Shown here piece after piece: positions 37,457 through 51,914 of a stretch of DNA of 64,000 nt. A program made the translations under genes and the position numbers. Under the pieces are notes generated by a model. The model had not been told where the DNA came from. It worked only from the letters and a program-made list of their open reading frames with translations, and did no database searches. Numbering within the stretch: position 1 is the first letter of the stretch; every line of letters begins with the position of its first letter. The stretch comes from an uncultured Pseudomonadales bacterium (GTDB lineage: Bacteria > Pseudomonadota > Gammaproteobacteria > Pseudomonadales > Azotimanducaceae): positions 33,564-97,563 of the forward strand of contig CAYMUT010000018.1 in assembly GCA_964393625.1 (NCBI GenBank), in the 5' to 3' direction.

Positions 37457-38737
37457 TTATTTGCGTTTCACGCGCACAGGTAACGAATTGTAGCCTTTGA
37501 CGAACACACTCCGGGAAAGTTCGGGTTCACCCAGCACTTCGATGTCTTCGAAGCGATCGAGGATCTCTTCCCAGAGAACACGCAACTGCATTTCCGCCAG
37601 GCGATTACCCATGCAGCGATGAATACCGTAACCGAACGAAACGTGCTGGCGTGCGTTTTTCCTTTCGATATCGAGGCTGTGCGGGTCTTCGAATACGGTT
37701 TCGTCCCGGTTGCCCGATACGTACCACATCACGACCTTGTCGCCCTTGGCGATAGTTCTGCCGCCTAACTCTATGTCTTGGTTGGCGACCCGGCGCATAT
37801 GGGCCAGGGGCGTCTGCCAGCGGATCACTTCGGCCACCATATTGGGAATGAGGGCTGAGTCGGCTTTGAGTTTGGCGAACTGCTCAGGGAATTTGTTGAG
37901 CGAATAGACGCTGCCGCTCATGGTGTTGCGGGTGGTGTCGTTGCCACCCACGATCAGCAGGATCAGGTTACCCAGGAATTCGAAGGGTCGAGAGGGCAGA
38001 TCCCAGGTATCCGGGTGATGGGCCATCATCGAGATGAGGTCGAAATCGGCGGGTTTGTTGGCGCGGTCTTTCCACAGTTCTCCGAACGCTTCGAGGCACT
38101 GCAGCAGATCGGCCCGGGACGCGTCCTGGGCTTCCTGGGTGAAGTCGGTGTAAACGCCGCCGGTTGCGACGTCCGACCAGTAGGTGAGTTTGCGACGGTC
38201 TTCGAATGGAAAGCCGAACAGCGTGGCCAGCATGCGCGTGGTCAGCTCTATAGATACGTTTTCGACCCAGTTGAATTCCTCATCGTGGGGCAGACTGTCG
38301 AGCACGTCGATGGTTCGTTCCCGGATCAGGCTTTCGAAATTGACCAGGTTTCTCGGCGCTACCACGGGCTGCACGACCTTGCGCTGATCATCGTGCTTGG
38401 GCTGATCCATGGCGATGAACATGGGCATGGTGAAGTCGTCATCGGGTTCGTCGATGGTGATGGCCGGCTGTGAACTGAACAGCTTGTGTGCCTGATCGAC
38501 TTGTTTGATTTCTTTGAAGGTTGTGACCGACCAGTACGGGCCGAAGGCGCTTTGTGGTGTGTAGTGCACAGGCGCTTCTTTGCGCAACCGCTCAAAAAAC
38601 GCCCAGTGATCGCCGCGCTGGAAATATTGCGGCCGCGCCGGATCGATGAGTTCCAGGGGCGTTTCCCAGGGATCCTGCTCGGGGAGTTCCATGGGATTGA
38701 TGCGGTTGAATGTACTGGTTTCTACAGGTTCACTCAT
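37457..38737 (-). CDS. cytochrome P450, CYP153-like (terminal/alkane hydroxylase family)
   Basis: Heme loop FGYGIHRCMGNRLAE. I-helix LLIVGGNDTTRN. Also GPYWSVTTFKEI, PMFIAMDQPKHDDQRK, IRWQTPLAHMRR and VVMWYVSGNRD, which match my memory of CYP153A sequences. Confidence 0.85.
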   Translation of the reverse strand: MSEPVETSTFNRINPMELPEQDPWETPLELIDPARPQYFQRGDHWAFFERLRKEAPVHYTPQSAFGPYWSVTTFKEIKQVDQAHKLFSSQPAITIDEPDDDFTMPMFIAMDQPKHDDQRKVVQPVVAPRNLVNFESLIRERTIDVLDSLPHDEEFNWVENVSIELTTRMLATLFGFPFEDRRKLTYWSDVATGGVYTDFTQEAQDASRADLLQCLEAFGELWKDRANKPADFDLISMMAHHPDTWDLPSRPFEFLGNLILLIVGGNDTTRNTMSGSVYSLNKFPEQFAKLKADSALIPNMVAEVIRWQTPLAHMRRVANQDIELGGRTIAKGDKVVMWYVSGNRDETVFEDPHSLDIERKNARQHVSFGYGIHRCMGNRLAEMQLRVLWEEILDRFEDIEVLGEPELSRSVFVKGYNSLPVRVKRK

Positions 38738-38846
38738 GGTCGCCGAGCTCCGGCAAGAAAGTACCCGGCCATACTAAATTATTCAGTTTAGATTGCAATG
38801 ATGCTACTGTGCCGACGTTGTTGGGAGTTGTAGAAAGGGCAGTAAT

Positions 38847-39458
38847 TTGTCTTTAGAGGAGTTCCGAATTCAGCGGGAACGCTCGAAACGGGCGTCAATC
38901 ATCCATGGTGCCCGCAAGCTGTTTTCCCAAAACGGATTTCATGAGGTGACCACTGTCGCATTAGCCGCAGAGGGCGGCGTGTCCACGGCTACCCTATACC
39001 GCTACTTCGACGACAAAGAAACGCTGTTCAACGCCGTGATCGATGAATTCGTCGATCAGATCAGCACCGCACTGGACGCCTCGGCGCAACGCAACGAAGA
39101 CCGGCTGGGCGCGCTGTGCGTGGCTTACGCCAACCTCTTTTCCAACCCGGAATTCATCGGCCTCCTGCGCGTGATCATTGCTGATGCCGGGGAAAGTGCC
39201 GGCTTTGGCGCAAAACTGGAAGAGCAGGGGCACGCCCTGTTTTTCTCGGCCATAGATGCCGAAGTCAGGGGGTTGCTTGGTGGCCAGCCGAGCGAGGAAA
39301 CCATTGCGCAGGCAAGTTCTGAATTATGCGCGGTGATCGAACACCACACCCTGGTTCCGCATCTGCTGTTCTGCGAGTCGACTGACGCCCACGAAGTGAA
39401 GGCCATGGTAGAGCGTACCCTGGCCAACTGGCGCAGACACTGGCGGGTGACCTGGTGA
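38847..39458 (+). CDS. TetR family transcriptional regulator
   Basis: N-terminal HTH: ARKLFSQNGFHEVTTVALAAEGGVSTATLYRYFDDKETLF. Divergent from the P450. TTG start. Confidence 0.8.
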   Translation: MSLEEFRIQRERSKRASIIHGARKLFSQNGFHEVTTVALAAEGGVSTATLYRYFDDKETLFNAVIDEFVDQISTALDASAQRNEDRLGALCVAYANLFSNPEFIGLLRVIIADAGESAGFGAKLEEQGHALFFSAIDAEVRGLLGGQPSEETIAQASSELCAVIEHHTLVPHLLFCESTDAHEVKAMVERTLANWRRHWRVTW

Positions 39459-39478
39459 GCTGTTTCGTATAAGAGGCC

Positions 39479-40150
39479 CTAATTCAGCGCGATACGCTCG
39501 CCAAACTTATCTTCAAACACCAGCTTTTCCGGTGGTCTGCGTGAAATCGGGCCGTGCCCTTTGCTGCGCGGGTATCCAATGGCGACTACGCCGCAGGTAT
39601 GCCAGTCATCCGGGATGTCCAGCAGTGTCTTCATTGCACTTTCTTCATAACACAGCAGCGTGGTCAGCGTGCAGCCGACGCCTTCGTTGACGCAGGCGAG
39701 CATGAGGTTCTCGACCGCGGGATAAACCGAGCCGCCCCCGACCACAGACGGGCGACCCAGGTCGGCGTCGGTAATCGCCATGATATCGGGGTTGAAGCAC
39801 ACCACCAGCAGTACCGGTGCGGTGCCCATGTTTTCGCCTAGATAGTCTGCAGCCGCAAGCATGCGCTCCTGCTTGGCCCGGGCTTCGCCTTCCAGGCGCT
39901 CGAGGCCACGTCTGTTTGCTGCACCGTATTTTTCCCATTGTGGCTTGTACAGCTCACCGATCTGCTGACGCAGTTGCGCATCGCGCACTGCGACTATGCG
40001 CCATGGCTGCACATTACCGCCGCTCGGGGCCCATGCGGCGGCCTGCAGAATGCGTTTGAGTACGTCATTGGATATCGGATCAGGCTTCAGACGGCGCACC
40101 GCGCGAAGGTTGCTCATGGCGTCATACAGAGCAATAGATTCGGTGGTCAT
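39479..40150 (-). CDS. nitroreductase family protein (paralog B)
   Basis: LRAVRRLKPDPISNDVLKRILQAAAWAPSGGNVQPWRIV. Colinear with paralog A through to the C-terminal GHGPISRR motif. Confidence 0.8.
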   Translation of the reverse strand: MTTESIALYDAMSNLRAVRRLKPDPISNDVLKRILQAAAWAPSGGNVQPWRIVAVRDAQLRQQIGELYKPQWEKYGAANRRGLERLEGEARAKQERMLAAADYLGENMGTAPVLLVVCFNPDIMAITDADLGRPSVVGGGSVYPAVENLMLACVNEGVGCTLTTLLCYEESAMKTLLDIPDDWHTCGVVAIGYPRSKGHGPISRRPPEKLVFEDKFGERIALN

Positions 40151-40236
40151 GGCGTTGTTCCTGCTAAAATTTGACTTTGACTATAAAAACCGTTCGAATA
40201 AATGAATTCAAGTATTTTTTCTTGTTTCGCGTTCAG

Positions 40237-40917
40237 ATGCAGAAAATAGTGAATATCCCGCAAACCGACAATAGTGACACTGGTTCCGAGCGCCCGACAG
40301 GCAAGCTCGCCCGTACCCGTAACAAGCTGGTGCGGGCGGTGCGCGAAGAGATTGCCGAGCATGGGGGATTCAGTGCCGAACGCGTAGCGCTGCGCGCGGG
40401 CACCTCGACGCCCACTTTCTACAATCATTTTGCAACTAAAGATGATGCTCTGGCTGCCGCGTACGAACAGATGATGCTCGGAGTGGTGGAGCTGGCGCAG
40501 AGAAAATGTCAGATCGAGCGCTTGCTTGATGAGGGGCTGCAGACACTGGTAGCCGACTGGGTGCTCATGACCGGCGCCTTTTTCCGCGAGAACGTCAGAT
40601 TGAGTCGACTGGCCCAGGCTGCCATCGACCGCTCCAAAACCATGCGGGATCTGTTCCGTGATCATGAAGCCCGGACCATAGAAGTTTATCGCCGGTTCAT
40701 CGAACTGGGGCAGGCGGCATGCGCCATCCGTCAGGGTAATCCGGACGCCATGGCCAGGGTGCTTACCATCACCGCACAGTCCTGGCACCACCAACTCGTG
40801 CAGAACGTAGAAGCGGGCGATGACCTGCATCGTGAACTCACCGGCATGATCGTCGGCATGTTGCAGCCGTCTGTCGACATGCCCCATCAGCTGAAGCTTG
40901 AGGAGAACCACACATGA
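40237..40917 (+). CDS. TetR family transcriptional regulator
   Basis: HTH: VREEIAEHGGFSAERVALRAGTSTPTFYNHFATKDD. Internal ATG 40237 preferred. Its stop overlaps the next gene (ATGA). Confidence 0.8.
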   Translation: MQKIVNIPQTDNSDTGSERPTGKLARTRNKLVRAVREEIAEHGGFSAERVALRAGTSTPTFYNHFATKDDALAAAYEQMMLGVVELAQRKCQIERLLDEGLQTLVADWVLMTGAFFRENVRLSRLAQAAIDRSKTMRDLFRDHEARTIEVYRRFIELGQAACAIRQGNPDAMARVLTITAQSWHHQLVQNVEAGDDLHRELTGMIVGMLQPSVDMPHQLKLEENHT

Positions 40918-42071
40918 CTGACAGTGAACTGATTGATGCCGCAGAGCGGCTCAGGCGCGTCTGCTATGAAGCGGCTGACGAGATTGAAACACAACGTCGC
41001 GTACCGGCAGAAATCTCTGCCCAGATCGCTGCTGCAGGGTTTTATGGGATGGGCATACCAGCCTCGGTGGGCGGTCTGGAAACACCCCCGGCGGTTAGCA
41101 GCAAAGTGATAGAGACCCTGGCCCGGGGTGACGCTTCGTGCGCCTGGGTGGTGTTTATCGGTGTGACCAGCGGTACTGCGTTGGCCATGGTTCCGGGAGC
41201 ATCGGCGCGGGCCATCTATACAAGTCCACAGGTGATGCTGACCGGGGTGTTTGCCCCTTCCGGGCGCGCTGACAAGGTAGACGGCGGTTTCCGTGTTTCG
41301 GGTCAGTGGCAGTGGGGTTCCGGCAGTCAAAATGCGGACTGGGTACTTGGCGGCTGCATGTTCTACGACAATGGAGCGCCTTTGCTCGATGAGCGCGGTA
41401 ATCAGCGCACCCATATGGTGATCATGCCGGCCGGTGAGGTCGAGTTCCTCGATACCTGGCATGTCTCCGGGTTGTGCGGAACCGGCAGCCTGGACTATCG
41501 GGTCAACGACGTGTTCGTACCCGATGAGCGCGTGTCGGGTTATATGATCGACCGCGAGACGCTGCGGCAGCCGCTTTATGCGTTTCCTCAATTTACCTTT
41601 CTGGCGCTGGGTATCGGCGCAGTCTGCATGGGTATCGCACGGGCCGCCATCGACGAGCTGATAGACGTCGCGGTGACCAAGAAGCGGGCGGGCAACAGCG
41701 CGACCATCGCCAGTAAGTCGACCTCGCAGACCAAACTCGCCCAGGCCGAAGCAGACCTGCGCAGTGCGCGGGTGTTTTATTACCATACCTTGGAGCAGGC
41801 ATGGGAAGTTGCCCGCAGCGGCGGTAAAGTCAGTCTGGATGTGCGCCGTGACCTGCGTCTGGCTACTACCAATGCGGTGATGAAAAGCGCGGGCGTGGTG
41901 GATGAAATGTACAACCTTGCCGGTGGCACATCGGTCTACCGCCGCTCGCGCCTGCAACGCCATTTCAGAGATGTGCATGTGGCGACCCAGCACATCATGG
42001 TGGCGCCGCAGACGCTCGAGGTGCTGGGTTCGATGTACTTCGGCAATGACGCAAAGTCGGCAATGATCTGA
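40914..42071 (+). CDS. acyl-CoA dehydrogenase family protein
   Basis: 385 aa with ACAD-like N, middle and C domain pattern (WGSGSQNADW, RHFRDVHVATQH). Confidence 0.75.
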   Translation: MTDSELIDAAERLRRVCYEAADEIETQRRVPAEISAQIAAAGFYGMGIPASVGGLETPPAVSSKVIETLARGDASCAWVVFIGVTSGTALAMVPGASARAIYTSPQVMLTGVFAPSGRADKVDGGFRVSGQWQWGSGSQNADWVLGGCMFYDNGAPLLDERGNQRTHMVIMPAGEVEFLDTWHVSGLCGTGSLDYRVNDVFVPDERVSGYMIDRETLRQPLYAFPQFTFLALGIGAVCMGIARAAIDELIDVAVTKKRAGNSATIASKSTSQTKLAQAEADLRSARVFYYHTLEQAWEVARSGGKVSLDVRRDLRLATTNAVMKSAGVVDEMYNLAGGTSVYRRSRLQRHFRDVHVATQHIMVAPQTLEVLGSMYFGNDAKSAMI

Positions 42072-42106
42072 TTGTTACCTGTCCCTGACCTTGAGAGGAG
42101 CCATTT

Positions 42107-42919
42107 ATGACCCAGCAATTCAATATCGAAGACGTGGCCTACACCCGCTTCACCTTCGAACGGTCAGGCCGGGTGCTGACCGCCGCCATTACTTCGGATC
42201 ACCCGGTAAACGGCGTTGACGAGCCCATGCACGATGAGCTGGCCAGGGTGTTCAACGATCTGCAGCGGGACTCCGACAGCGACATCATCATTCTCACGGG
42301 TAAAGGCCGGGCCTTCTGCGCGGGGGGCGATTTCGACTGGTTCGACGAGCAGATCAATGACCCTGCCAATTTCCGGGCAATCGCCTGGGACGCCAAACGC
42401 ATTGTGTTGAGTCTGCTGGAAATGGAAAAACCCATTATCTGCCGTCTGAACGGTGCGGCGGCGGGCCTGGGCGCCACCATTGCATTGCTGTGCGATGTGA
42501 TCATCGCCGATGACAAAGCGGTCATAGGCGATCCGCACGTCAAGGTGGGGCTTGTTGCCGGCGATGGTGGTGCGCTGATATGGCCGCAGCTGATCGGCTA
42601 CGCGAGAGCCAAAGAACTGCTCATGACCGGCGACATTCTGAGCGCGGCGCAAGCCCAGGAACTGGGCCTGATCAATTACGCAGTGCCCACCGGGCAGCTC
42701 GATGACAAAGTGGGCGAGCTTGTTGCCAAACTGCAGGGCAATCCCCGCTGGGCGGTGCGCTGGACCAAGACGGTGACAAATATTCCTCTGCGGGCGCTGG
42801 CCGCTCAGATCATGGATGCATCTATAGGATGGGAGAGCGTTTCCAACTTCCACGAAGATCGTAAGGAAGCGGTAGCCGCCATGCGCGAGAAACGTGCGCC
42901 GAAGCTGACCGGCGAATGA
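42107..42919 (+). CDS. enoyl-CoA hydratase/isomerase family protein
   Basis: LTGKGRAFCAGGD, PIICRLNGAAAGLGATIALLCD. GAGAGGAG Shine-Dalgarno upstream. Confidence 0.85.
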   Translation: MTQQFNIEDVAYTRFTFERSGRVLTAAITSDHPVNGVDEPMHDELARVFNDLQRDSDSDIIILTGKGRAFCAGGDFDWFDEQINDPANFRAIAWDAKRIVLSLLEMEKPIICRLNGAAAGLGATIALLCDVIIADDKAVIGDPHVKVGLVAGDGGALIWPQLIGYARAKELLMTGDILSAAQAQELGLINYAVPTGQLDDKVGELVAKLQGNPRWAVRWTKTVTNIPLRALAAQIMDASIGWESVSNFHEDRKEAVAAMREKRAPKLTGE

Positions 42920-42926
42920 GGCTGGC

Positions 42927-44105
42927 ATGATGAACGGAGCATCCTTCGCGCCGGAAGACCCACACATTACTCAGATCAGATCACAGCTGCAGCGTTTGGT
43001 GGCGCAACATGCGCCCCGGGAAAAACGCCGCGAGTGGGATCAGCAGCACACCTGGCCCCGGGATCTGTTCCGGCAGATCGCCGACATGGGATTGATCGGG
43101 TTGACCATCCCGGAAGAGTTTGGTGGCGCCGGTCAGGATCTGCTGGCGGCAGTAGCGGTGATCGAAGAACTGGTGCAGGGGAGCATGTCGCTTGCCGGAC
43201 CATATATACACGCGGCCTTCTATGGCGGCATGAACCTGTCGGAAAATGGATCGCAGCAGCAGAAAGAGGCGCTGCTGCCGAAAATAGCCCGAGGTGAGTT
43301 ACTGCTCGCTTATGGTCTGTCGGAGCCCAACATCGGTGGCGATCTCGCCAGCGTGGAAACCCGTGCGGAACGGCTGGGCGATGAGATTGTGATCAATGGC
43401 GCCAAGCGCTGGTGTACAGGTGCCGACTGGGCGGATTATATCTACTGTCTGGTGCGCAGTGGCGCGCCGGAGGAACGCTACCGGAACTTATCCATGGTGC
43501 TGATCCCGACGGACGCCCCGGGTATCACCATGCAGCCCATTGAGCATGTGAACCTGCGCTATACCACCTCGATGGATGTCTATTTTGACGATGTTCGACT
43601 TGGCGAGGACGCCATCGTCGGCGGCCCTGACATGTGGAATAAGGGCTGGAAGCTGCTCGCCGGTCGAGCGCTGGACGTGGAAAAGATTGAAATCACCGCG
43701 GCGGCCTACGGAGCGGCGCGGGCCGCCGTGGACGATGCCTGGCGCTACGCCGAGGAGCGCACACAGTTCGGCAAACCCATCGCCCAGCATCAGGCTATCC
43801 GTCACAAGCTGGTCACCGCTAAAACCAAACTGCAGGCGGCGCGGCACATGCTGTATCACGGTGCCTGGCTGGCAAATGAAGGGCTGCCCTGTTCGGTGGA
43901 GACTTCCATGGCGAAATTGTTCGTTGCCGATGTCGGCGTGGAGATCGCATTGGCGTGCCAGCAGATCATGGGCGCCTATGCGCTGTCGGATGCCTACGAC
44001 ATCGAGCGCAATGTCAGAGATTTACTGGGCATGCCGATTGTGGGCGGCTCGTCCGACATGCAAAAGAACAACCTTGCGAGTATGCTCAAGCTTGGTAATC
44101 CATAG
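42927..44105 (+). CDS. acyl-CoA dehydrogenase
   Basis: LAYGLSEPNIGGDLASV, RWCTGADWADY, QFGKPIAQHQAIRHKL and a C-terminal IVGGSSDMQKN-type motif. Confidence 0.85.
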   Translation: MMNGASFAPEDPHITQIRSQLQRLVAQHAPREKRREWDQQHTWPRDLFRQIADMGLIGLTIPEEFGGAGQDLLAAVAVIEELVQGSMSLAGPYIHAAFYGGMNLSENGSQQQKEALLPKIARGELLLAYGLSEPNIGGDLASVETRAERLGDEIVINGAKRWCTGADWADYIYCLVRSGAPEERYRNLSMVLIPTDAPGITMQPIEHVNLRYTTSMDVYFDDVRLGEDAIVGGPDMWNKGWKLLAGRALDVEKIEITAAAYGAARAAVDDAWRYAEERTQFGKPIAQHQAIRHKLVTAKTKLQAARHMLYHGAWLANEGLPCSVETSMAKLFVADVGVEIALACQQIMGAYALSDAYDIERNVRDLLGMPIVGGSSDMQKNNLASMLKLGNP

Positions 44106-44128
44106 GATGGCTGGGCAGGGGGCTATAA

Positions 44129-45175
44129 TTGGGGTCAGTACAGAAACGGGTTCATGAGGTCCAGGACGATCTTCTCAGTGCCATCGACTACTGCTATGAG
44201 CAGGGCTGGACAGATGGGCTGCCGGTGGTGCCGCCGGAGCGATCCCGGGTCGAGGCCATGCTGGGCATGGAAGGCCGGCCGCCGGAAACGGTCATAGCGA
44301 CGCATCCTGCGACCGGGCTTGAATTGTCTATCCATGCCGCCGCGGTCAATGCGGTGATGGCCGGGTGCCTGCCTGAGTACTTTCCTGTAGTGGTGGCTGC
44401 CATGGAGGCCATGGATAAGAAACCATTTACCTTTCACGGCAGTACCGCCAGCACCGGTGGTTCCGCGCCGTTGCTCATCGTCAGTGGACCGGTGGTAGAT
44501 GAGATCGGCATGAACAGTGGCGCTAACCTGTTTGGTCCGGGTAATCGGGCCAACGCGACCATCGGGCGTGCGGTGCGGTTGATCATTCTCAACGTTTTCC
44601 GCATGACACCAGGTATCGCTGACAAATCTACCCAGGGGCACCCCGGCAAATTCAGTTTCTGCATCGCCGAGCGCGGGGATGTTAACCCGTGGCCCGGCCT
44701 TAACGAGGATCTCGGGTATGGCCCGGATATCTCCTGCGTGGTGACTTTTGCCGGGGCTGGTTTCTGCAATGTGGAAAACCATGGCGCCGGCGATGCCGAG
44801 GGAATCCTGCTGTCGGTGGCCGACAGCATGGCCAACCTGGGCTGTATTACACTGGGCCAGAGTGTGGTCGTGCTGTCGCCTGAGCATGCCGGCATCATTG
44901 CCAATGATGGCTGGTCAAAGCAGCGTGTTCAGGAGTTCCTGTTTGAGCACGCGCGGCGCAGTGTCGCGGATATGCAGGAGGCGGGCAAGTACATGACACG
45001 GGAGCATGAACGGCAGGGCAGGGATGACATGCATCGCGGTCTTGGTCCGGAAGACATTCTGATCACGGTTGGCGGCGGTGACGCGGGTGGCCACAGTGCG
45101 TTCATACCTTCATGGAGTCGGGGTAGAAGTTCAATTATGCAGCACCAGGCCATTGGTGTGTGCATTGACTGTTAG
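44129..45175 (+). CDS. hypothetical protein (348 aa), partner of the UGSC selenoprotein candidate
   Basis: No family recognised. TTG start with AGGGGG 7 nt upstream; it is the only in-frame start codon before residue 44. Soluble and Gly-rich, ending in the CxxC-like tail GVCIDC. Its TAG stop sits inside the AGGAGG Shine-Dalgarno of the next gene. Confidence 0.6.
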   Translation: MGSVQKRVHEVQDDLLSAIDYCYEQGWTDGLPVVPPERSRVEAMLGMEGRPPETVIATHPATGLELSIHAAAVNAVMAGCLPEYFPVVVAAMEAMDKKPFTFHGSTASTGGSAPLLIVSGPVVDEIGMNSGANLFGPGNRANATIGRAVRLIILNVFRMTPGIADKSTQGHPGKFSFCIAERGDVNPWPGLNEDLGYGPDISCVVTFAGAGFCNVENHGAGDAEGILLSVADSMANLGCITLGQSVVVLSPEHAGIIANDGWSKQRVQEFLFEHARRSVADMQEAGKYMTREHERQGRDDMHRGLGPEDILITVGGGDAGGHSAFIPSWSRGRSSIMQHQAIGVCIDC

Positions 45176-45183
45176 GAGGCGCA

Positions 45184-45705
45184 ATGGAACTGATTGATCC
45201 CACTGTCGAGGGTGCCGAACAGAATAGATCACGTGCGCCGGCCATAAGCGATCTGCACGGATTGACGATCGGGCTGCTGTCCAACGGTAAAGCGAATGCT
45301 GATCACCTGATCGGAAAGACCGCCGATCTGCTGGTCGAACGGTTCGGCGGCAGGCGCCTCGATGTTCTATACAAGAAACATCCGAGCGAGCCGGCTCCCG
45401 GCGAGCTGCTGACCAACCTTTGCCACGAGTGCGACTATCTGATCACTGCTGCGGGGGACTGAGGCAGTTGTTCAACGTGCAGTGTGCATGACGGAATTAT
45501 GTTCGAACAAATGGGTAAACGTGCCGTAGTGCTGTGCACTACGCCATTTGACGTCACGTCGAAAAATATCGCCAGGGTGCTTGGCCTGGCTGACTATCCG
45601 TTCGCGCTGCTGGAACATCCGCTGGGGTCGCTGGCACAAAGCGAGGTGGATGCCAGAGCCGCGGCCGCGGCTGTGGCGAGCGTGCGGATTCTAACGGCGC
45701 CTTAG
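45184..45705 (+). CDS. UGSC-type selenoprotein candidate (173 aa; TGA 45460-45462 read as selenocysteine)
   Basis: Track ORFs 45184-45462 and 45484-45705 share one frame and are separated only by TGA plus 7 sense codons. The fused sequence reads ...LCHECDYLITAAGD-U-GSCSTCSVHDGIMFEQ.... A strong AGGAGG precedes ATG 45184. No Shine-Dalgarno or ATG serves the downstream piece. A hairpin follows the TGA. Confidence 0.65.
45468..45510 (+). other. candidate bacterial SECIS element
   Basis: Inner hairpin CGUGC-AGUGU-GCAUG (45476-45490; 5 bp including one G-U). The GU-containing apical loop starts 21 nt from the U of UGA. A possible outer helix UUGUUC (45468-45473) pairs with GAACAA (45505-45510). 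Confidence 0.4.
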
Positions 45706-45726: not shown

Positions 45727-46665
45727 ATGGGGCAACTGGTAGACGGGCGCTGGACGAACGAAGATGTTCGTCGCACTGGCGCAAAGGGTGAATTCATCCG
45801 GCCGGAGTCGCCGTTCAGGGCCTGGCTCGGTGGCTCTGCCAATGAATTTCCAGCGGTGTCGGGACGTTATCACCTGTTTGTTAACTCCGGGTGTCCCTGG
45901 GCCTACCGGACAGTGCTCTACAGGCGCTTGAAAGGCCTCGGAGAGCACATCTCATTGTCGCTAACCGAGCCTGCCGCAGGCGCTGAAGGGTGGACCTTTG
46001 GTGATCGAATGGAACCGTTGCTCGGTGCCCGGCACATTCATGACGTCTATAGTGCCGCTGACAGTGCCTTTACTGGCAGGTGCACTGTGCCGGTTTTATG
46101 GGACAAGCAGCGGCGTACCATCGTCAACAATGAGTCTTCTGAAATCATCCGCATGTTGAACAGTGAATTTGACGGGCTCGAGGGGGTGAGCGCAGATGAT
46201 TTCTACCCTGAGGCCAAGCGCGATGAGATCGATGGGTTGAATAACCTCATCTATCGCACGGTGAATAACGGCGTGTACCGATGTGGATTTGCGCAGACGC
46301 AGCAGGCCTATGAAGAAGCCTTCGATGCGCTGTTTGCGACACTCGACGAGATGGATACGAGATTGGCGGATCAGCGCTACCTCTGCGGTGATCGTGTTAC
46401 CGAGGCGGATTGGCGTTTATTTTCGACGTTGATCCGATTCGACGTTGCCTACTACACACAGTTCCGCTGTAATCGGCAGATGATCAAAGACTATGAATAT
46501 CTGTGGCCCTATACGCGCGATCTGTATCAGTACCCGGGTGTGGCCGAGACAGTGAGTATTGATGCGATCAAAGGCATATATTTCGGCAGCAGGCCTCCCC
46601 GGATCATCCCCAAGGGACCCCAGATGGATTTTGAGGAACCCCATGGCAGGGGGCAGTATGTCTAA
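45727..46665 (+). CDS. glutathionyl-hydroquinone reductase (Xi-class GST, YqjG-like)
   Basis: Catalytic motif SGCPWAYRTVLYRRLKGL (the CPWAHR type). RCTVPVLWDK and NNESSEIIRMLN. 312 aa. Confidence 0.85.
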   Translation: MGQLVDGRWTNEDVRRTGAKGEFIRPESPFRAWLGGSANEFPAVSGRYHLFVNSGCPWAYRTVLYRRLKGLGEHISLSLTEPAAGAEGWTFGDRMEPLLGARHIHDVYSAADSAFTGRCTVPVLWDKQRRTIVNNESSEIIRMLNSEFDGLEGVSADDFYPEAKRDEIDGLNNLIYRTVNNGVYRCGFAQTQQAYEEAFDALFATLDEMDTRLADQRYLCGDRVTEADWRLFSTLIRFDVAYYTQFRCNRQMIKDYEYLWPYTRDLYQYPGVAETVSIDAIKGIYFGSRPPRIIPKGPQMDFEEPHGRGQYV

Positions 46666-47827
46666 CGCCCCGGTATACGATATCGATGTTGAACGGTTCC
46701 GGGCCGACCCATACCCGGATCTGGCAGAGATGCGCAGCACCTGTCCAATCGCCTTCGTGCCGCAACTCGGTGCCACCCTGATTACCCGTCGCGCAGACAT
46801 CACTGTGTGTGAGAAAAACACAGCGGTGTTTTCTTCCTATCAGCCTGATGGTCTGATGACGGTGCTCATGGGTGAGAATCTCATGCGCAAAGATGGCCGT
46901 GCTCACATGCAGGAACGCCGGGCGATCTACCCGTCGATGTCGCCCAAGACCGTGGCGGCAGTATGGCGTGAACAGTTCAGCACTGATGCGCAGCGCCTGA
47001 TCGACGGCCTGGCCCCTCAGCAGTCTGCGGACCTGTTCTGGACCTACGCGATGCTGCTGTCGGCGGATGCACTACGGGCGATGACCGGTCTCACCAATAT
47101 GGCCCCCGAAGAAATGAATCGGGTGAGCCAGGGCATGATCGATGGTTGCGCGAACTATACGGGTGATGCTGAGGTGGAGGCGATCTGCAACGACTGCACT
47201 GCCAGCATAGACCGTCATATCGATGAGCGGTTGCCCGAGGTCCGCAGTCAGCCGGATCATTCGCTGTTGTCGGTGCAGGTGCAGGCGGATATGTCGGAAG
47301 AGCAGATCCGCGCCAACATCAAACTGTCGATATCCGGTGGACAGAATGAGCCACGCGACGCCATTGCCGGGGCGATCTGGGCCATGCTGAGGCATCCCGA
47401 ACAACTGGACATGCTGTTGCGTGGTGAAGTGAGCTGGCTGCAGGCGTTCGAGGAGTATTGCCGATGGATATCGCCCATCGGCATGTCGCCGCGGCGCATT
47501 GCGCAGGACTTTGATTACGCAGGCGTATGCTTCGAGCCGGAAGATCGAGTGTTTCTCATGTTCGGTTCAGGTAATCGGGACGAAGCGGTGTTTAGCGACC
47601 CGGACGTATTCGACATTACCCGGGATGTCTCTGCTTCGCTCAGCTTCGGCGCCGGGCCCCACTATTGCGCAGGCGCGTGGGCTTCACGTGCGCTGATCGC
47701 AGATGTGGCGTTGCCGGAATTTTTCAAGCGGGTGCATAATCCCCAGCTCGATGGAGATGTTCCATTTGGTGGATGGGCCTTTCGCGGGCCGCTGGCCCTG
47801 CCTTGTCGTTGGCAAGGGGTCGACTAG
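46658..47827 (+). CDS. cytochrome P450
   Basis: Heme loop FGAGPHYCAGAWASR and ExxR (EEYCRW). AGGGGG precedes the internal ATG 46658. The start overlaps the upstream stop by 8 nt. Confidence 0.85.
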   Translation: MSNAPVYDIDVERFRADPYPDLAEMRSTCPIAFVPQLGATLITRRADITVCEKNTAVFSSYQPDGLMTVLMGENLMRKDGRAHMQERRAIYPSMSPKTVAAVWREQFSTDAQRLIDGLAPQQSADLFWTYAMLLSADALRAMTGLTNMAPEEMNRVSQGMIDGCANYTGDAEVEAICNDCTASIDRHIDERLPEVRSQPDHSLLSVQVQADMSEEQIRANIKLSISGGQNEPRDAIAGAIWAMLRHPEQLDMLLRGEVSWLQAFEEYCRWISPIGMSPRRIAQDFDYAGVCFEPEDRVFLMFGSGNRDEAVFSDPDVFDITRDVSASLSFGAGPHYCAGAWASRALIADVALPEFFKRVHNPQLDGDVPFGGWAFRGPLALPCRWQGVD

Positions 47828-48342
47828 GAAGTCACTTCGCCGATGACCGCTGCCACCGTGCAGTGATAAGAGCGGCTTTCGGTGCCGAAACACCACAGAA
47901 TGTCATTGGCCTTCGACGGGAAATAGACCGGCTTGTCACGTTCAGCCCGGTGACAGAAACACCTGGCGCAGGTGGATTTGCCGCAGCAGTCGTTGTAAGA
48001 AATCAGATAGTCTTTACCGTCCACCGGATTACGGCAGGTGCCGACCCAGGAAATGGGTGAAATCTCTGAGCCTGGCGGGCACGAACTTACCGATCCGCCG
48101 CAGCAGGTGCACAGGGTGCCGCCCAGCGCACAGTAGCGCCAGTAGTCGCAACTCTGTGGGTCACCTATTTCTTCTGGAGGCTGCTGCTCCGCGCGGGCTA
48201 CAGGCAACACCGGCAGCAGGCTGGCGCCGACCATGGTGCTGCCCAGCTTACCGAGGAAACCCCGGCGGGAACTGCGGCGGGCGATCGCGCGGCTCGACGC
48301 ACGGGTCTTGGAATCGATCCATTCAAACAATGTCTGGTTCAT
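47824..48342 (-). CDS. TTQ-type amine dehydrogenase light chain (methylamine/aralkylamine dehydrogenase small subunit family)
   Basis: Tat-like leader SRRGFLGKLG. The Cys-rich mature domain SCDYWRYCALGGTLCTCCGGSVSSCPPGSEISPISWVGTC...DCCG...NDILWCFG...YHCTV is colinear with my memory of MauA. Both TTQ tryptophan contexts (SW and WCFG) are present. Confidence 0.85.
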   Translation of the reverse strand: MNQTLFEWIDSKTRASSRAIARRSSRRGFLGKLGSTMVGASLLPVLPVARAEQQPPEEIGDPQSCDYWRYCALGGTLCTCCGGSVSSCPPGSEISPISWVGTCRNPVDGKDYLISYNDCCGKSTCARCFCHRAERDKPVYFPSKANDILWCFGTESRSYHCTVAAVIGEVTS

Positions 48343-49472
48343 CGTGCGCCCTCCACGCTAAAGCCCTGCAGTAATCCCGGCGCGACACCGACGCTGCCGA
48401 TGCTGCGCAGCAGGACATTAGTTTTCACGTCGTAGACGTGCAGTTGTGAGTCGGCTCCGGTAACTGTGAGCAGCGGATCCTCACCTGGCGAGACATGCAG
48501 GTTGGTCCCGGGTGACGCAAGTTCGAGTCTTGCGATGCGCCGCTGGTTGCTGCGGTCATAAATCCATACTTGCGTACCCGGGTCGTCATGAGAAAACTCA
48601 CCGCCGGGATTCATCAGTACAAACAATAGATCCATGGGCGCATAGTAGGTTTTGAACTGGCCACCGCCGGGTCGCCACCCGGCGGCCAAGTCGTCTGCTT
48701 CGACCAGCGACCAGGGTTCGCTGAATTCGATCTCATCGCCATTCACAACAGCTTCGTGCACTTTGCCGTGGTAGGAAACCATCAGCCATCCCTGGGGTGT
48801 GGCGATGGGTTTGGCGAAGACCGGGTCTTTTTCCAGATCGAAAAACACCTCGCTGCGGCTGCGATCAATTTCAGCGCCATTGTCGTCCAGCTTGATCATC
48901 TGCAGCTTGCCGTCCGCACAGATCTGCAGAAACGTACGATCCGGCGTCGGCATGATCATGGAGCAGGCCGGAGTGGAAATCTCGGTGACGAACTTGCGCT
49001 GTTCAACATCGACAATGCTCACCGACATGGCGGGTGTCAGATTGAATACCGCCAGGTATCGACGATCGTCCATCATCGCAAGGTACTGGGGAAACGACAG
49101 AGCGGCGATCTTGTCGGGAATATCGATTTCGTCAACGACGGCGAAATTTTCATAATCGTAGACGGTCAGCACGTCGTTGCGTTTGCCGCGGGTACCTCGC
49201 GTGAAATAAGACTCTGCGGCATAGATCTCCTGACGTATGGGGTCGTCGACCAGGGCGGGCGTGAATGAAGGCGTGGAAATCATGCCGACCATTTCGCCGC
49301 TGGCGACATCGAGTACATAACGGGGGCCGAATGAATCTCTAGACACGACCCAGCTTGCCTGGGGTTGACCGAGGGTCTCGCGGCTTACCTGCTCGGGCTC
49401 TATGGCAAAGACGCTCTGCATGGTGGCGGCAGTGGCCAGCAGGCCGGCCAGGGCACGTGTTAATGGGCTCAT
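48339..49472 (-). CDS. TTQ-type amine dehydrogenase heavy chain (beta-propeller large subunit)
   Basis: Signal peptide. Colinear with my memory of MauB (FTRGTRGKRNDVLTVYD, GWRPGG, LHVYDVKT). Its stop overlaps the light-chain start (ATGA). Confidence 0.85.
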   Translation of the reverse strand: MSPLTRALAGLLATAATMQSVFAIEPEQVSRETLGQPQASWVVSRDSFGPRYVLDVASGEMVGMISTPSFTPALVDDPIRQEIYAAESYFTRGTRGKRNDVLTVYDYENFAVVDEIDIPDKIAALSFPQYLAMMDDRRYLAVFNLTPAMSVSIVDVEQRKFVTEISTPACSMIMPTPDRTFLQICADGKLQMIKLDDNGAEIDRSRSEVFFDLEKDPVFAKPIATPQGWLMVSYHGKVHEAVVNGDEIEFSEPWSLVEADDLAAGWRPGGGQFKTYYAPMDLLFVLMNPGGEFSHDDPGTQVWIYDRSNQRRIARLELASPGTNLHVSPGEDPLLTVTGADSQLHVYDVKTNVLLRSIGSVGVAPGLLQGFSVEGAR

Positions 49473-49527
49473 CGCTCCCCCAGAGTCATTGCAGGTGACT
49501 CAACTTTACCGCAAGCCCGGCACCTGG

Positions 49528-50181
49528 TCACCTGCAGTGCCAGGCAAATACGTGGGCAGTATTGAATTCGTCGAATTCACCCAGGTTCGGGAATGTCAGT
49601 GCCTGGATGGTGGTGAGTTGCCGATATGCCGGGTCGGGTAGTGTGGTAACCCGGGAATCTGCCACCAGCACTGTGTCGGCGTGCTGCTGGGCCAATGCCA
49701 GCAAGGGCAGGTTCTGCTTGTCGTACAGTACATCCGCCATCAGCAGCACATCGCAACGCTCCGGCAGATGCTCTGCAACCCTCATGTCAACGTCGTTCAG
49801 TGTGGCGTTGACCTCGGTGGCCAGTCGGGCGTCGGCGTCGGTATCGCAGGCAATGACTTGTGCGGCGCCGGCCAGGGCGGCGGCGATGCCGGCGACGCCG
49901 GACCCGGAACCCAGGTCGATGACGGATTTGCCGCTCACCCAGTCCGGTTGTTCCAGCAGGAATTGCGCCAGGGCCAGGCCGCTGCCCCAGCAGAAGGCCC
50001 AGTATGCCGGTTGGGCGATGACTGCGCGCATTACATCTTCCGGCAGAGGACCAGTCGGAAAATTGTCATTGATCAGCCCAAGGCGTATCTCGGGTAGTTC
50101 CGGAAGCTCGGTTTCGACAATTGATGCCATCGGCAGAGTCGTCTGCAGGCGGGCCTGAAGCGCGCAGAAGCGGTTGGACAT
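49528..50181 (-). CDS. class I SAM-dependent methyltransferase (PrmA/protein-lysine MTase-like)
   Basis: Motif I VIDLGSGSGVAGIAAALAGA followed by VIACDTD. 217 aa. Confidence 0.7.
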   Translation of the reverse strand: MSNRFCALQARLQTTLPMASIVETELPELPEIRLGLINDNFPTGPLPEDVMRAVIAQPAYWAFCWGSGLALAQFLLEQPDWVSGKSVIDLGSGSGVAGIAAALAGAAQVIACDTDADARLATEVNATLNDVDMRVAEHLPERCDVLLMADVLYDKQNLPLLALAQQHADTVLVADSRVTTLPDPAYRQLTTIQALTFPNLGEFDEFNTAHVFAWHCR

Positions 50182-50222
50182 TTGGATTTGAGGACGCCTT
50201 CAGGTGTGTGTTGCGAAGGTGG

Positions 50223-50582
50223 CTATAATGCCTGAGCCTGGCGGCGAATATATAGCAGACCGAGCGTGCCCAGCACCAGTACGACATAGTAAGAAAAGTC
50301 CAGAACGGGAGCGGAATCCTGCGATTCCGCCCGCACGTCCTGGTAAACACCGTTTGCGGTAGCGCCCGGCGTAGACTCATGTGGCTCCACGTCTGGCAGC
50401 GCTGCCAGCATTGAGCTCGTTTTAATGGTACTTGCCTCGGGCAGGCCTTCAGCTTCCGCGTGAAGCGGTGTCCACGCTAGAAGAACGAGTAAGATTGAAA
50501 GTAACGGACTAAATCTCACTGTTGTGGCTTGCTGTCTGAAGTACGGGGCCAGTGTAGAGCAAGCGCGAGTCTGAATCTGCAT
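50223..50582 (-). CDS. hypothetical secreted protein with C-terminal TM/basic anchor
   Basis: From the internal ATG 50582. Signal peptide ...LLSILLVLLAWTPLHA/EAEG, an acidic and Ser/Thr-containing middle region, and C-terminal YYVVLVLGTLGLLYIRRQAQAL. Confidence 0.4.
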   Translation of the reverse strand: MQIQTRACSTLAPYFRQQATTVRFSPLLSILLVLLAWTPLHAEAEGLPEASTIKTSSMLAALPDVEPHESTPGATANGVYQDVRAESQDSAPVLDFSYYVVLVLGTLGLLYIRRQAQAL

Positions 50583-50762
50583 GGCAGGTGTATCTGCATG
50601 TAATGACCTCGTAAATTTACCCGGGCGGGTTGAGTTGGCCGGAATCGGCCGGGGCAAGCCTCGACATTGAATTCAGAACCTGCTTTCATAACGAGTTTGA
50701 TATTTACCAGAAACTAAAGCGCCAGTTCAGGCGTCTGCCTGTACAGCGACGTATCAAAGGGG

Positions 50763-51914
50763 ATGCACATGCCGATGATTCTCAACGAAGAGCAGAACAT
50801 GCTCAAAGACAGCGCCAAAGACTTCTGCGCCAACAGTGCGCCGATCAGTCAGCTGCGTTCGTTGCGTGACGAGGACAATGCCGATGGCTACGACAAGGCC
50901 ACGTGGAGTTCAATGGTTGAACTGGGCTGGTCTGCGATCCCCTGGGGCGAAGAGCACGGCGGTCTGGCGTTCGGTTACAAGGGTCTCGGTGTTGTGACAG
51001 AAGAAACCGGGCGTACTCTGGCGGCAAGCCCCATGTACGGTACCGTCTGGGTTGGCGGTACGCTGGTCAACATCGGCGGCAGCGATGCCCAGAAAGCCGA
51101 TATTCTCCCCCAGCTCGCGGGCGGTGAACTGCTGCTGGCACTGGCGCTTGAAGAAGGCCACCGTCACGCACCCTACAACATAGCCACTTCAGCGGAAGCA
51201 GCGGGTGACGGCTATACCATCAACGGCAGCAAGACCTTTGTGCTCGATGGCCACGTGGCAGACAAACTGATCGTCGCAGCGCGCACCGGCGGGGACGCCG
51301 ACGCTCGTGACGGCATGACACTGTTTCTGGTTGATCGTGGCGCCGACGGCGTGAACGTTATCCGCACCAAGATGGCTGACTCACGTAATGCTGCAAACAT
51401 TGAGTTGAGCAACGTCTCTGTAGACGGCGACGCGGTTCTTGGCGAGGTAGGAAAGGGCGCCGATGTGCTTGACCCCGCCCTGGATATCGCCCGCATCGGC
51501 CTCTCGGCGGAAATGCTGGGCAGTCTGCAGGAGTGCTTCGAGCGCACCGTCGAGTATCTCAAAGAGCGTAAGCAGTTCGGCGTCGCCATCGGCAGCTTCC
51601 AGGCTCTCAAGCATCGCGCTGCGAATATGTTCTGTGAGATCGAGTTGTCCAAATCCTGCGTGCTGGAAGCACTCACCGCGCTGGACGAAGGCCGCGATGC
51701 AGAAGAGGTGGCTAAGCTTGCCAGCCTTACCAAGGCGAAAGTGGGTGAGACCTTCAATCTGGTGTCTCGCGAGGGCATTCAGATGCACGGCGGTATCGGC
51801 ATGACCGATGAATTCGACATCGGTTTCTTTATCAAGCGCGCCGCGGTGACCGAGCAGACCTTCGGTGATGTGAACTTCCACCGCAATCGCTACGGCGAAC
51901 TGGAAGGGTACTAG
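50763..51914 (+). CDS. acyl-CoA dehydrogenase
   Basis: ACAD domain pattern: LALEEG, TINGSKTFVLDGHVAD, QFGVAIGSFQALKHRAANM, IQMHGGIGMTDE. ATG 50769 is also possible. Confidence 0.85.
   Translation: MHMPMILNEEQNMLKDSAKDFCANSAPISQLRSLRDEDNADGYDKATWSSMVELGWSAIPWGEEHGGLAFGYKGLGVVTEETGRTLAASPMYGTVWVGGTLVNIGGSDAQKADILPQLAGGELLLALALEEGHRHAPYNIATSAEAAGDGYTINGSKTFVLDGHVADKLIVAARTGGDADARDGMTLFLVDRGADGVNVIRTKMADSRNAANIELSNVSVDGDAVLGEVGKGADVLDPALDIARIGLSAEMLGSLQECFERTVEYLKERKQFGVAIGSFQALKHRAANMFCEIELSKSCVLEALTALDEGRDAEEVAKLASLTKAKVGETFNLVSREGIQMHGGIGMTDEFDIGFFIKRAAVTEQTFGDVNFHRNRYGELEGY

Follow-up and report, generated by a model that had tools for sequence, protein, structure and literature searches.

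Glycine/sarcosine/betaine reductase protein B (GrdB/GrdE) and D-proline reductase (PrdB/PrdA) combine a small selenocysteine (Sec, U) protein with a larger substrate-binding protein, and the redox motif of GrdB is UxxCxxC (PMC13188914). A similar organisation was found in the present study for the selenoproteins of the UGSC family, which are abundant in ocean metagenomes, have been listed as having an unknown function from 2007 to a review of 2026, and are presumed in the literature to possess a thioredoxin-like fold. The DNA analysed, further referred to as the window, is a 64,000-nucleotide stretch from an uncultured Pseudomonadales bacterium (assembly GCA_964393625.1, contig CAYMUT010000018.1). 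It encodes a UGSC protein with a GrdB-type UxxCxxC motif, UGSCSTC, directly downstream of the gene of a 348-aa protein labelled X here (open reading frame (ORF) 44129-45175, forward strand). It seems that UGSC is not a free-standing redox protein but the small subunit of a two-part enzyme, the large subunit of which belongs to an unnamed, unmodelled and structurally unsolved family.

X is a real and strongly conserved gene, far beyond chance, because at least 8000 homologues are found in a 90%-clustered database and the best 120 of them all demonstrate 66–100% identity. Wherever the source supplies a name for these 120 proteins, it is “hypothetical protein”. A 348-aa protein 100% identical to X (P0001) has been called independently in public assemblies. 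When clustered at 50% identity, the family, of which X is a typical member, comprises 5004 clusters (E-value up to 1e-3), 1115 of which reach 1e-30. The relatives at 68–83% identity belong to Gamma-, Alpha- and Betaproteobacteria, Entotheonella and metagenome-assembled genomes of Chloroflexota, and more distant members are encoded by cultured Arthrobacter, Roseovarius, Variovorax, Paracoccus, Vibrio, Sporomusa, Neorhizobium and several haloarchaea.

According to the initial annotation, a family occurring mostly without UGSC neighbours would refute its proposal. The gene neighbourhood was analysed in two sets of loci. In the close set, which includes 80 genomic loci of close X relatives searched for UGSC by tblastn, a UGSC gene lies within about 1.5 kb downstream of X in 75 loci, eight of which have it in convergent orientation. 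The five others comprise three loci at a contig edge and two (L041 and L054) truly without a nearby UGSC. The diverse set includes 80 metagenomic loci with 36–78% identity to a distant representative, searched for UGSC with profiles. UGSC adjoins X in 72 of them, in both gene orders, and in five of the remaining eight the contig ends there. A Sec-UGSC gene is also adjacent to all four distant stand-alone X representatives examined (4/4). X is thus nearly always found beside UGSC, and few associations between two genes are as strong as this pairing.

The two proteins are also found in single chains. UGSC-X fusions include P0178, P0197 and P0216, and about 35 more are known, full UGSC-X proteins of 530–590 aa making up about 35 of the best 120 matches of one search. 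The reverse order is represented by X-UGSC proteins, where the gene calls of P0128 and P0136 end exactly at the Sec TGA, and the X-UGSC fusion P0271 is labelled by NCBI as a UGSC family (seleno)protein. Further gene calls (P0132, P0144 and P0244) start just past the Sec position. Public annotation of stand-alone UGSC genes contains errors as well: the Cys-type UGSC of Variovorax sp. SRS16 (L181, 7102-7611) is labelled hypothetical, and the Sec-type UGSC of Paracoccus (L183, 5408-5977) is split at the TGA into two hypothetical ORFs. Some fusions carry Cys-less UGSC motifs, namely LADMGTS, LGDMGTS and AEIGGSL (L178 5374-7059 in Vibrio europaeus; L184 5311-7035 in Sporomusa termitida; P0178).

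Many contigs contain the X/UGSC module twice or two adjacent X paralogues (L039 2420-3970, L089, L093, L103, L117, L124, L171, L182 4279-6978 and L185 4319-6981), and an X'-UGSC-X arrangement occurs in haloarchaea. These duplicate modules suggest paralogue expansion or heteromeric X/X' enzymes. Tandem X-X proteins of ~710 aa were also detected (P0127, encoded at L086 7213-9366, P0131, P0133, P0143, P0175 and P0254), and the gene of an SBP_bac_5 binding protein lies directly upstream of the tandem gene in L086.

Scans of the window X against Pfam-A and NCBIfam matched no model at E up to 1, and 63 diverse relatives (35–70% identity) showed no meaningful Pfam or NCBIfam match (Pfam threshold E up to 0.1). 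No chain among the PDB sequences was matched by X with phmmer or by the X family profile with hmmsearch. The models of the UGSC family (PF24696 and NF041046) cover only the small domain of ~170 aa, and X lies outside any model. The initial annotation could not assign X to any family, which agrees with these searches: as far as the databases searched show, the family is large, unnamed and uncharacterised. The sole possible mention found in earlier literature is a passing sentence on a “UGSC/Unknown_1 fusion” in a 2008 paper (Zhang and Gladyshev). Unknown_1, the subject of figure S1A of that paper together with UGSC, is likely to be X.

In the alignment of the 63 members, residues P32, A78, G79, G120, R147 and G316 of X are invariant, and D29, N74, C80, T109, R140, N142, C178, E181 and W188, among others, are conserved in at least 90% of the sequences. 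In a second, independent alignment of 39 fusion proteins, C80 and R147 are again both invariant. The signature motifs of the family are GWTDGLPVVPPT, NAVMAGCxPEY, GPGxRANATIGRA and CIAE.

An AlphaFold2 model of X based on the family alignment has a predicted local distance difference test score (pLDDT) of 93.5 and a predicted template modelling score (pTM) of 0.93, and places Cys80 just before the helix 82–96. The model of the natural UGSC-X fusion P0216, based on an alignment of 39 sequences, has a pLDDT of 90.5 and a pTM of 0.92, with a disordered linker (187–192) and X making up only about 63% of the chain. Since by definition a pTM of 0.92 needs both domains to be placed confidently, UGSC and X appear to form one fixed, packed arrangement in this prediction. 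Together with the near-universal adjacency and the fusions in both orders, this model bears out the two-component module proposed in the initial annotation. The UGSC domain of P0216 consists of five consecutive beta-alpha units, with the Sec-equivalent Cys at a helix N-terminus. The PDB structures that match this domain best belong to lumazine synthase, CheY-like proteins and a succinyl-CoA synthetase chain, with a TMt of about 0.5. The arrangement of a thioredoxin fold (beta-alpha-beta-alpha-beta-beta-alpha with a mixed sheet) was not found in the UGSC model. The five units and the type of the PDB matches argue for a predicted flavodoxin-like fold of UGSC and not for a thioredoxin fold.

Further partners of X are redox proteins. 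X is fused to a thioredoxin-reductase-like Pyr_redox_2 domain in P0173, to FeThRed_B, the catalytic chain of ferredoxin:thioredoxin reductase (FTR), in P0207 and P0218, and to a peroxiredoxin-like AhpC/TSA domain in P0230; weak NifU-like matches were also found among the fusion partners. Since a Sec-UGSC gene is still located directly upstream on the contigs of P0173 and P0207, these two systems consist of three parts. Thioredoxin system genes accompany the pair in several genomes. The order is trxB-trxA-X-UGSC on a single strand in Arthrobacter sp. ERGS1:01 and X-UGSC-trxB in Roseovarius sp. THAF8. In Variovorax sp. SRS16, trxB lies two genes upstream of X, and in V. boronicumulans the gene of a flavoprotein of thioredoxin reductase (TrxR) size is followed by a TctC gene and the UGSC-X fusion. 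Of the 131 loci that span at least 6 kb, 10 contain a TrxR-like gene. These fusions and clusters strengthen the view of the initial annotation that X and UGSC constitute a thiol/selenol redox module, which is well supported but unproven.

With moderate confidence, we regard X as the larger, catalytic and substrate-binding subunit, and UGSC as the dedicated small subunit, of a two-component cytoplasmic reductase fed through TrxR. The reducing direction, the electron flow, the role of Cys80 and the anionic substrate are what we infer in this proposal. Electrons of NAD(P)H would enter via a TrxR-type flavoprotein, with or without thioredoxin, or, in some lineages, via a module resembling ferredoxin:thioredoxin reductase. 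They would reduce the Sec-x-x-Cys selenenylsulfide of UGSC, predicted to sit at the helix N-terminus of the flavodoxin-like domain docked on X. The selenol may then reduce the invariant Cys80 of X, present as a covalent adduct or in an oxidised form, or may reduce the bound substrate directly. The putative pocket of X would be formed by the invariant Arg147, the nearly invariant Arg140, Asn142, Glu181 and Asp29, and the Gly-rich GPGxRAN loop, a lining that hints at a small anion, probably a carboxylate, as the substrate.

The genes around the pair suggest a role in the catabolism of small organic acids. The recurrent but variable neighbours include TctC, TRAP, TAXI, SBP_bac_5 and ABC binding proteins, family III CoA-transferases (18 of 131 loci), CoA-ester lyases, acyl-CoA dehydrogenases (ACAD), enoyl-CoA hydratases (ECH), SDR and LLM oxidoreductases, and MmgE/PrpD proteins. 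Two genes of phosphosulfolactate synthase (ComA-like, sulfite-adding) were also noticed near X-UGSC, in Arthrobacter (L176, 3698-4486) and, as a short copy, in Natrinema (L177, 2862-3329). A link of X-UGSC to sulfite or sulfonates was considered and dropped, as the tblastn tally scored a ComA-like gene in the Arthrobacter locus only, which is too few.

A number of observations weigh against a TrxR-fed reductase of carboxylates. In the close clade of the window, a TrxR-like gene was found within 6 kb in none of 77 loci. The clustering of ORFs over 80 and 94 loci revealed no shared gene besides X and UGSC, and the hint at carboxylates from gene context therefore rests on variable neighbours. C178 is substituted in some members, e.g., in P0197. 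The UGSC domains of the fusions from Vibrio and Sporomusa and of P0178 lack both the Sec/Cys and the +3 Cys, so thiol/selenol chemistry by UGSC is not obligatory for all members. On the contig of the tandem X-X protein P0127 (one contig examined), no UGSC is in view. Since such fusions and the tandem protein exist, X seems able to work without a redox-active partner.

The same fusions bear on another explanation, which we consider unlikely: X could convert small organic acids without redox chemistry, e.g., as a hydro-lyase, isomerase or racemase in which Cys80 serves as the catalytic base or nucleophile, and UGSC could be an integral structural or regulatory small subunit, its Sec/Cys-x-x-Cys, where present, only protecting Cys80 from oxidation or switching the enzyme on and off. 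It is favoured by the retention of the X motifs, AGC included, in the fusions with a Cys/Sec-less UGSC domain, by the aconitase-X and DUF126 dehydratase genes adjoining these fusions in the unrelated Vibrio and Sporomusa, and by the frequency of CoA-transferase, CoA-ester lyase, ECH and MmgE/PrpD neighbours. The best structural match also speaks in its favour. The Foldseek search with the X model, which the initial annotation had proposed, was run against the PDB, and its only match below 1e-3 is the alpha subunit of class I fumarate hydratase, a two-subunit enzyme (E 6.8e-5, probability 0.96, TM-score only 0.25–0.29), followed by Toblerone-fold cyclic amide hydrolases (TM-score about 0.2, E 1e-3 to 1e-1); no match was found in the BFVD. 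The fumarate hydratase match is poor and is absent among the 50 PDB matches listed by Foldseek for the P0216 fusion model. Moreover, homology of X with Fe-S hydro-lyases was rejected because the hhalign comparison of the family profile with TtdA of E. coli, which is related to the fumarate hydratase, gave a probability of 0.3%. We conclude from the models that the predicted fold of X has no good match in the PDB (TM-score below 0.3) and probably no representative there, with the resemblance to hydro-lyases being a distant lead at most. A clear match to a well-characterised non-redox family, which the initial annotation regarded as decisive against a redox role, was thus not obtained, the matches being weak and low in TM-score. 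In addition, the near-universal retention of the costly Sec and the recurrent recruitment of TrxR, FTR, peroxiredoxin and thioredoxin are hard to explain by the upkeep of a single thiol.

The cysteines of the two proteins show some coordination. The CxxC-like tail GVCIDC reported in the initial annotation is present in the window X, but it is a clade-specific trait and not a family-wide one, the C-terminal CIDC being conserved only in the clade with at least 68% identity and in a few other members. Cys-rich tails of X were always accompanied by a UGSC partner with the additional Cys of UxxCxxC, and this was observed in three separate subclades: GVC[IV]DC pairs with UGSCSTCS, PxCxDGxC with UGSCTSCC (6/6 loci) and GICRECE with UGSCSSCS. 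The converse fails, as many UGSC partners with the third Cys pair with an X lacking a Cys-rich tail. Because of this co-occurrence, an interplay of the CIDC tail with the UGSC cysteines gains indirect support.

The pairing of Cys-rich tails with the third UGSC Cys would also suit a metal centre (Fe-S or Zn) at the interface of X and UGSC, with Cys80, Cys178 (and the CxxC tail), Sec/Cys93 and Cys96(/99) as ligands and Sec serving as a metal ligand. The UxxCxxC spacing is similar to that of cluster-binding motifs, the fusion partner FeThRed_B is a 4Fe-4S protein, and the NifU-like matches and the weak fold resemblance of X to an Fe-S hydro-lyase point in the same direction, as does a C-terminal extension of the Arthrobacter UGSC with an extra CxxC (CSDC), the NifU-likeness of which is a guess. 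We find such a centre improbable, however. Only C80 is invariant, and many members do without C178, C99 or the tail; some partners have UGSS or UGTS; and the associations with TrxR, thioredoxin and peroxiredoxin point to dithiol exchange.

The features of the X-UGSC locus in the window are listed below.

Features of the X-UGSC locus (positions in the window)
Feature	Coordinates	Strand	Remarks
Shine-Dalgarno-like AGGGGG	44117..44122	+	read from sequence, 6 nt 5' of the X TTG
Gene for protein X	44129..45175	+	ORF and translation, 348 aa, TTG start
TAG stop of X	45173-45175	+	within TAGGAGG
AGGAGG Shine-Dalgarno of the UGSC gene	45174..45179	+	overlaps the X TAG stop; read from sequence
UGSC-family selenoprotein gene	45184..45705	+	173 aa, Sec at residue 93
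In-frame TGA read as Sec (U93)	45460..45462	+	context AAGD-U-GSCSTC
SECIS-like element	45469..45509	+	upper hairpin 45476-45490, lower stem 45469-45473 with 45505-45509
GST_N_2/GST_C_2 protein with CPWA motif	45727-46665	+	directly past the UGSC gene; glutathionyl-hydroquinone-reductase-like

No start codon other than the TTG of X lies in frame between the preceding stop and the conserved core, and all X peptide stretches quoted in the initial annotation, including the GVCIDC tail, were found in the translation. The overlap of the X stop with the AGGAGG sequence and the 8-nt gap between this stop and the UGSC ATG were also verified in the sequence. The 1:1 translational coupling deduced from them fits the window but does not extend to the relatives, where convergent and reversed gene orders occur. 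The gap is mostly 8–77 nt there, reaching 128–1450 nt in five loci, and UGSC is located upstream of X in many distant loci.

The gene following X encodes an ordinary member of the UGSC family. With Cys in place of Sec, its product matches PF24696 at 3e-46 and 158 bits (cut-off 25) over positions 1–171 of the 172 in the model, and it scores 117.4 bits with NF041046, just under the equivalog cut-off of 125. All 74 full-length close orthologues have TGA at the position of U93 and share an invariant GD-U-GSCSTCS[LV]HDG around Sec. Among the 72 diverse metagenomic loci with UGSC, Sec is encoded in at least 66 and Cys in two, and the general motif is GD-U-G-[SAG]-C. The cysteine cluster emphasised in the initial annotation is conserved in part: Sec and UxxC are retained (UxxC in about 90% of the partners), whereas the third Cys is frequently missing and not family-wide, and some partners read UGSS or UGTS. 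The CHEC motif of the small protein is not conserved in relatives.

A selenocysteine insertion sequence (SECIS)-like element follows the TGA. Its upper hairpin in the window, CGUGCA-GUG-UGCAUG, begins 13 nt past the UGA and has GU in the loop, and this hairpin is invariant, with the consensus CGUGCA-GUK-UGCAYG and complete pairing in all 24 diverse sequences compared. The ACG, TGC and AGT codons are (nearly) frozen at their synonymous positions, which points to a constraint at the RNA level. The lower stem contains one covarying pair (UA 8, CG 7, UG 5). The structure and covariation statistics of the element were not above shuffle controls, and a single-sequence fold of the region was not significant; for this reason, the hairpin agrees with a bacterial SECIS without proving one. 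The window was also scanned for Rfam families and tRNAs with no match, so that no Sec machinery lies within its 64 kb. On the megaplasmid pFER4 of Paracoccus ferrooxidans, selB, the gene of the Sec-specific elongation factor (L183, 10380-12155), is separated by about 3 kb from X and its Sec-type UGSC, and DsrE, TusA and cysteine desulfurase genes are also near.

In the window, X is preceded by ACAD-ECH-ACAD genes, and the UGSC gene and the gene of a glutathione S-transferase (GST) follow downstream. The CPWA motif of the GST is typical of the Xi class, and the protein is probably a further thiol-dependent reductase; a GST gene beside X-UGSC is not conserved in relatives. A catabolic island surrounds the pair (37457-44105 and 46559-51914) and contains two cytochrome P450s, two TetR-like regulators, a nitroreductase, three acyl-CoA dehydrogenases and an enoyl-CoA hydratase. 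One of the P450 genes, as listed from 46559, would share about 100 nt with the GST gene, and its true start is probably later. Adjoining small and large subunit genes of the methylamine/aromatic-amine dehydrogenase type were detected on the reverse strand at 47824-49472 (PF02975 1.5e-52, PF06433 4e-43), with a stop/start overlap.

Thus, a marine selenoprotein puzzle of roughly 19 years becomes a defined, experimentally testable system that draws on the thioredoxin reductase system. Its hosts include culturable organisms, with the Cys-type X-UGSC in Arthrobacter sp. ERGS1:01, Roseovarius sp. THAF8, Variovorax and Halalkalicoccus jeotgali B3 and the Sec-type in Paracoccus, and the X family merits a curated family model. 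We tentatively propose that X, UGSC and a TrxR-type reductase may make up an unrecognised, globally abundant Se-dependent reductase of small carboxylate-type compounds. In haloarchaea and in bacteria of the sea, fresh water and soil, it would be the aerobic equivalent of the glycine and proline reductases of Stickland fermenters, without homology to them. If so, the rank of UGSC among the most abundant selenoproteins of ocean metagenomes would be explained.

The analogy with glycine and proline reductases drawn in the initial annotation holds in its logic, since both kinds of system combine the thioredoxin system with a UxxC(xxC) Sec protein and a larger partner, but no homology with Grd or Prd was detected. 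In these reductases, electrons pass from NADPH to thioredoxin reductase and thioredoxin, and trxB and trxA are found in the operon of X-UGSC in some hosts. It could be supposed that X and UGSC are truly, if distantly, homologous to the B components of glycine/sarcosine/betaine or D-proline reductase, where X would correspond to the pyruvoyl-containing GrdE/PrdA and UGSC to GrdB/PrdB. The UxxCxxC motif of GrdB, the reduction of the Grd system by thioredoxin and the trxB-trxA-X-UGSC order of Arthrobacter, which recalls the layout of grd operons, speak for such an origin. Nevertheless, we judge it very unlikely, because neither sequence similarity in Pfam scans, nor Grd partners, nor an evident pyruvoyl site were found. 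The Grd/Prd proteins are covered by PF09338, PF07355 and PF04723. X showed no Pfam match at E up to 1, including PF09338 (Gly_reductase, GrdE/PrdA), and the 63 members showed none at E up to 0.1. In its turn, UGSC matched only PF24696 at E up to 1 and not GRDB (PF07355), which makes PF24696 the sole Pfam match of either protein. No conserved Cys/Ser self-cleavage site is evident in X, where positions 108–109 are S/T followed by T, and no grdA-, grdC- or grdD-like neighbours were found by the clustering of ORFs. The hosts also differ, being Stickland fermenters in the case of Grd/Prd and mostly aerobic marine, soil and freshwater bacteria and haloarchaea in the case of X-UGSC. Besides, X and UGSC are often fused into a single chain, unlike the components of Grd/Prd.

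Two other groups of enzymes can be compared with the pair. Thioredoxin-dependent reductases with a single reactive Cys, such as PAPS reductase, Msr and ArsC, form a general class which the proposed X system resembles in having one invariant reactive Cys by a putative anion-binding pocket, served by a separate CxxC/UxxC protein that would be recycled by TrxR. Their folds and sequences are unrelated to those of X, and their servicing protein is free thioredoxin, whereas X would be served by a flavodoxin-like Sec protein of its own, to which it is tightly bound or fused. Class I Fe-S hydro-lyases (fumarate hydratase and tartrate dehydratase alpha) and the Toblerone-fold cyclic amide hydrolases are the only PDB folds with a Foldseek signal for X. 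The class I hydro-lyases are two-subunit enzymes like X-UGSC and act on small dicarboxylates, but X is distant from both groups (TM-score 0.2–0.3) and has no Pfam match in common with them. A 4Fe-4S cluster of the hydro-lyase type would need three Cys ligands, whereas the only conserved cysteines of X are the invariant C80 and C178, which is present in at least 90% of members and replaced in some. On the basis of these comparisons, we rate the X-UGSC system as a two-subunit enzyme dependent on a selenoprotein and on the thioredoxin system, the large catalytic subunit of which represents a family that is uncharacterised as far as the databases searched show.

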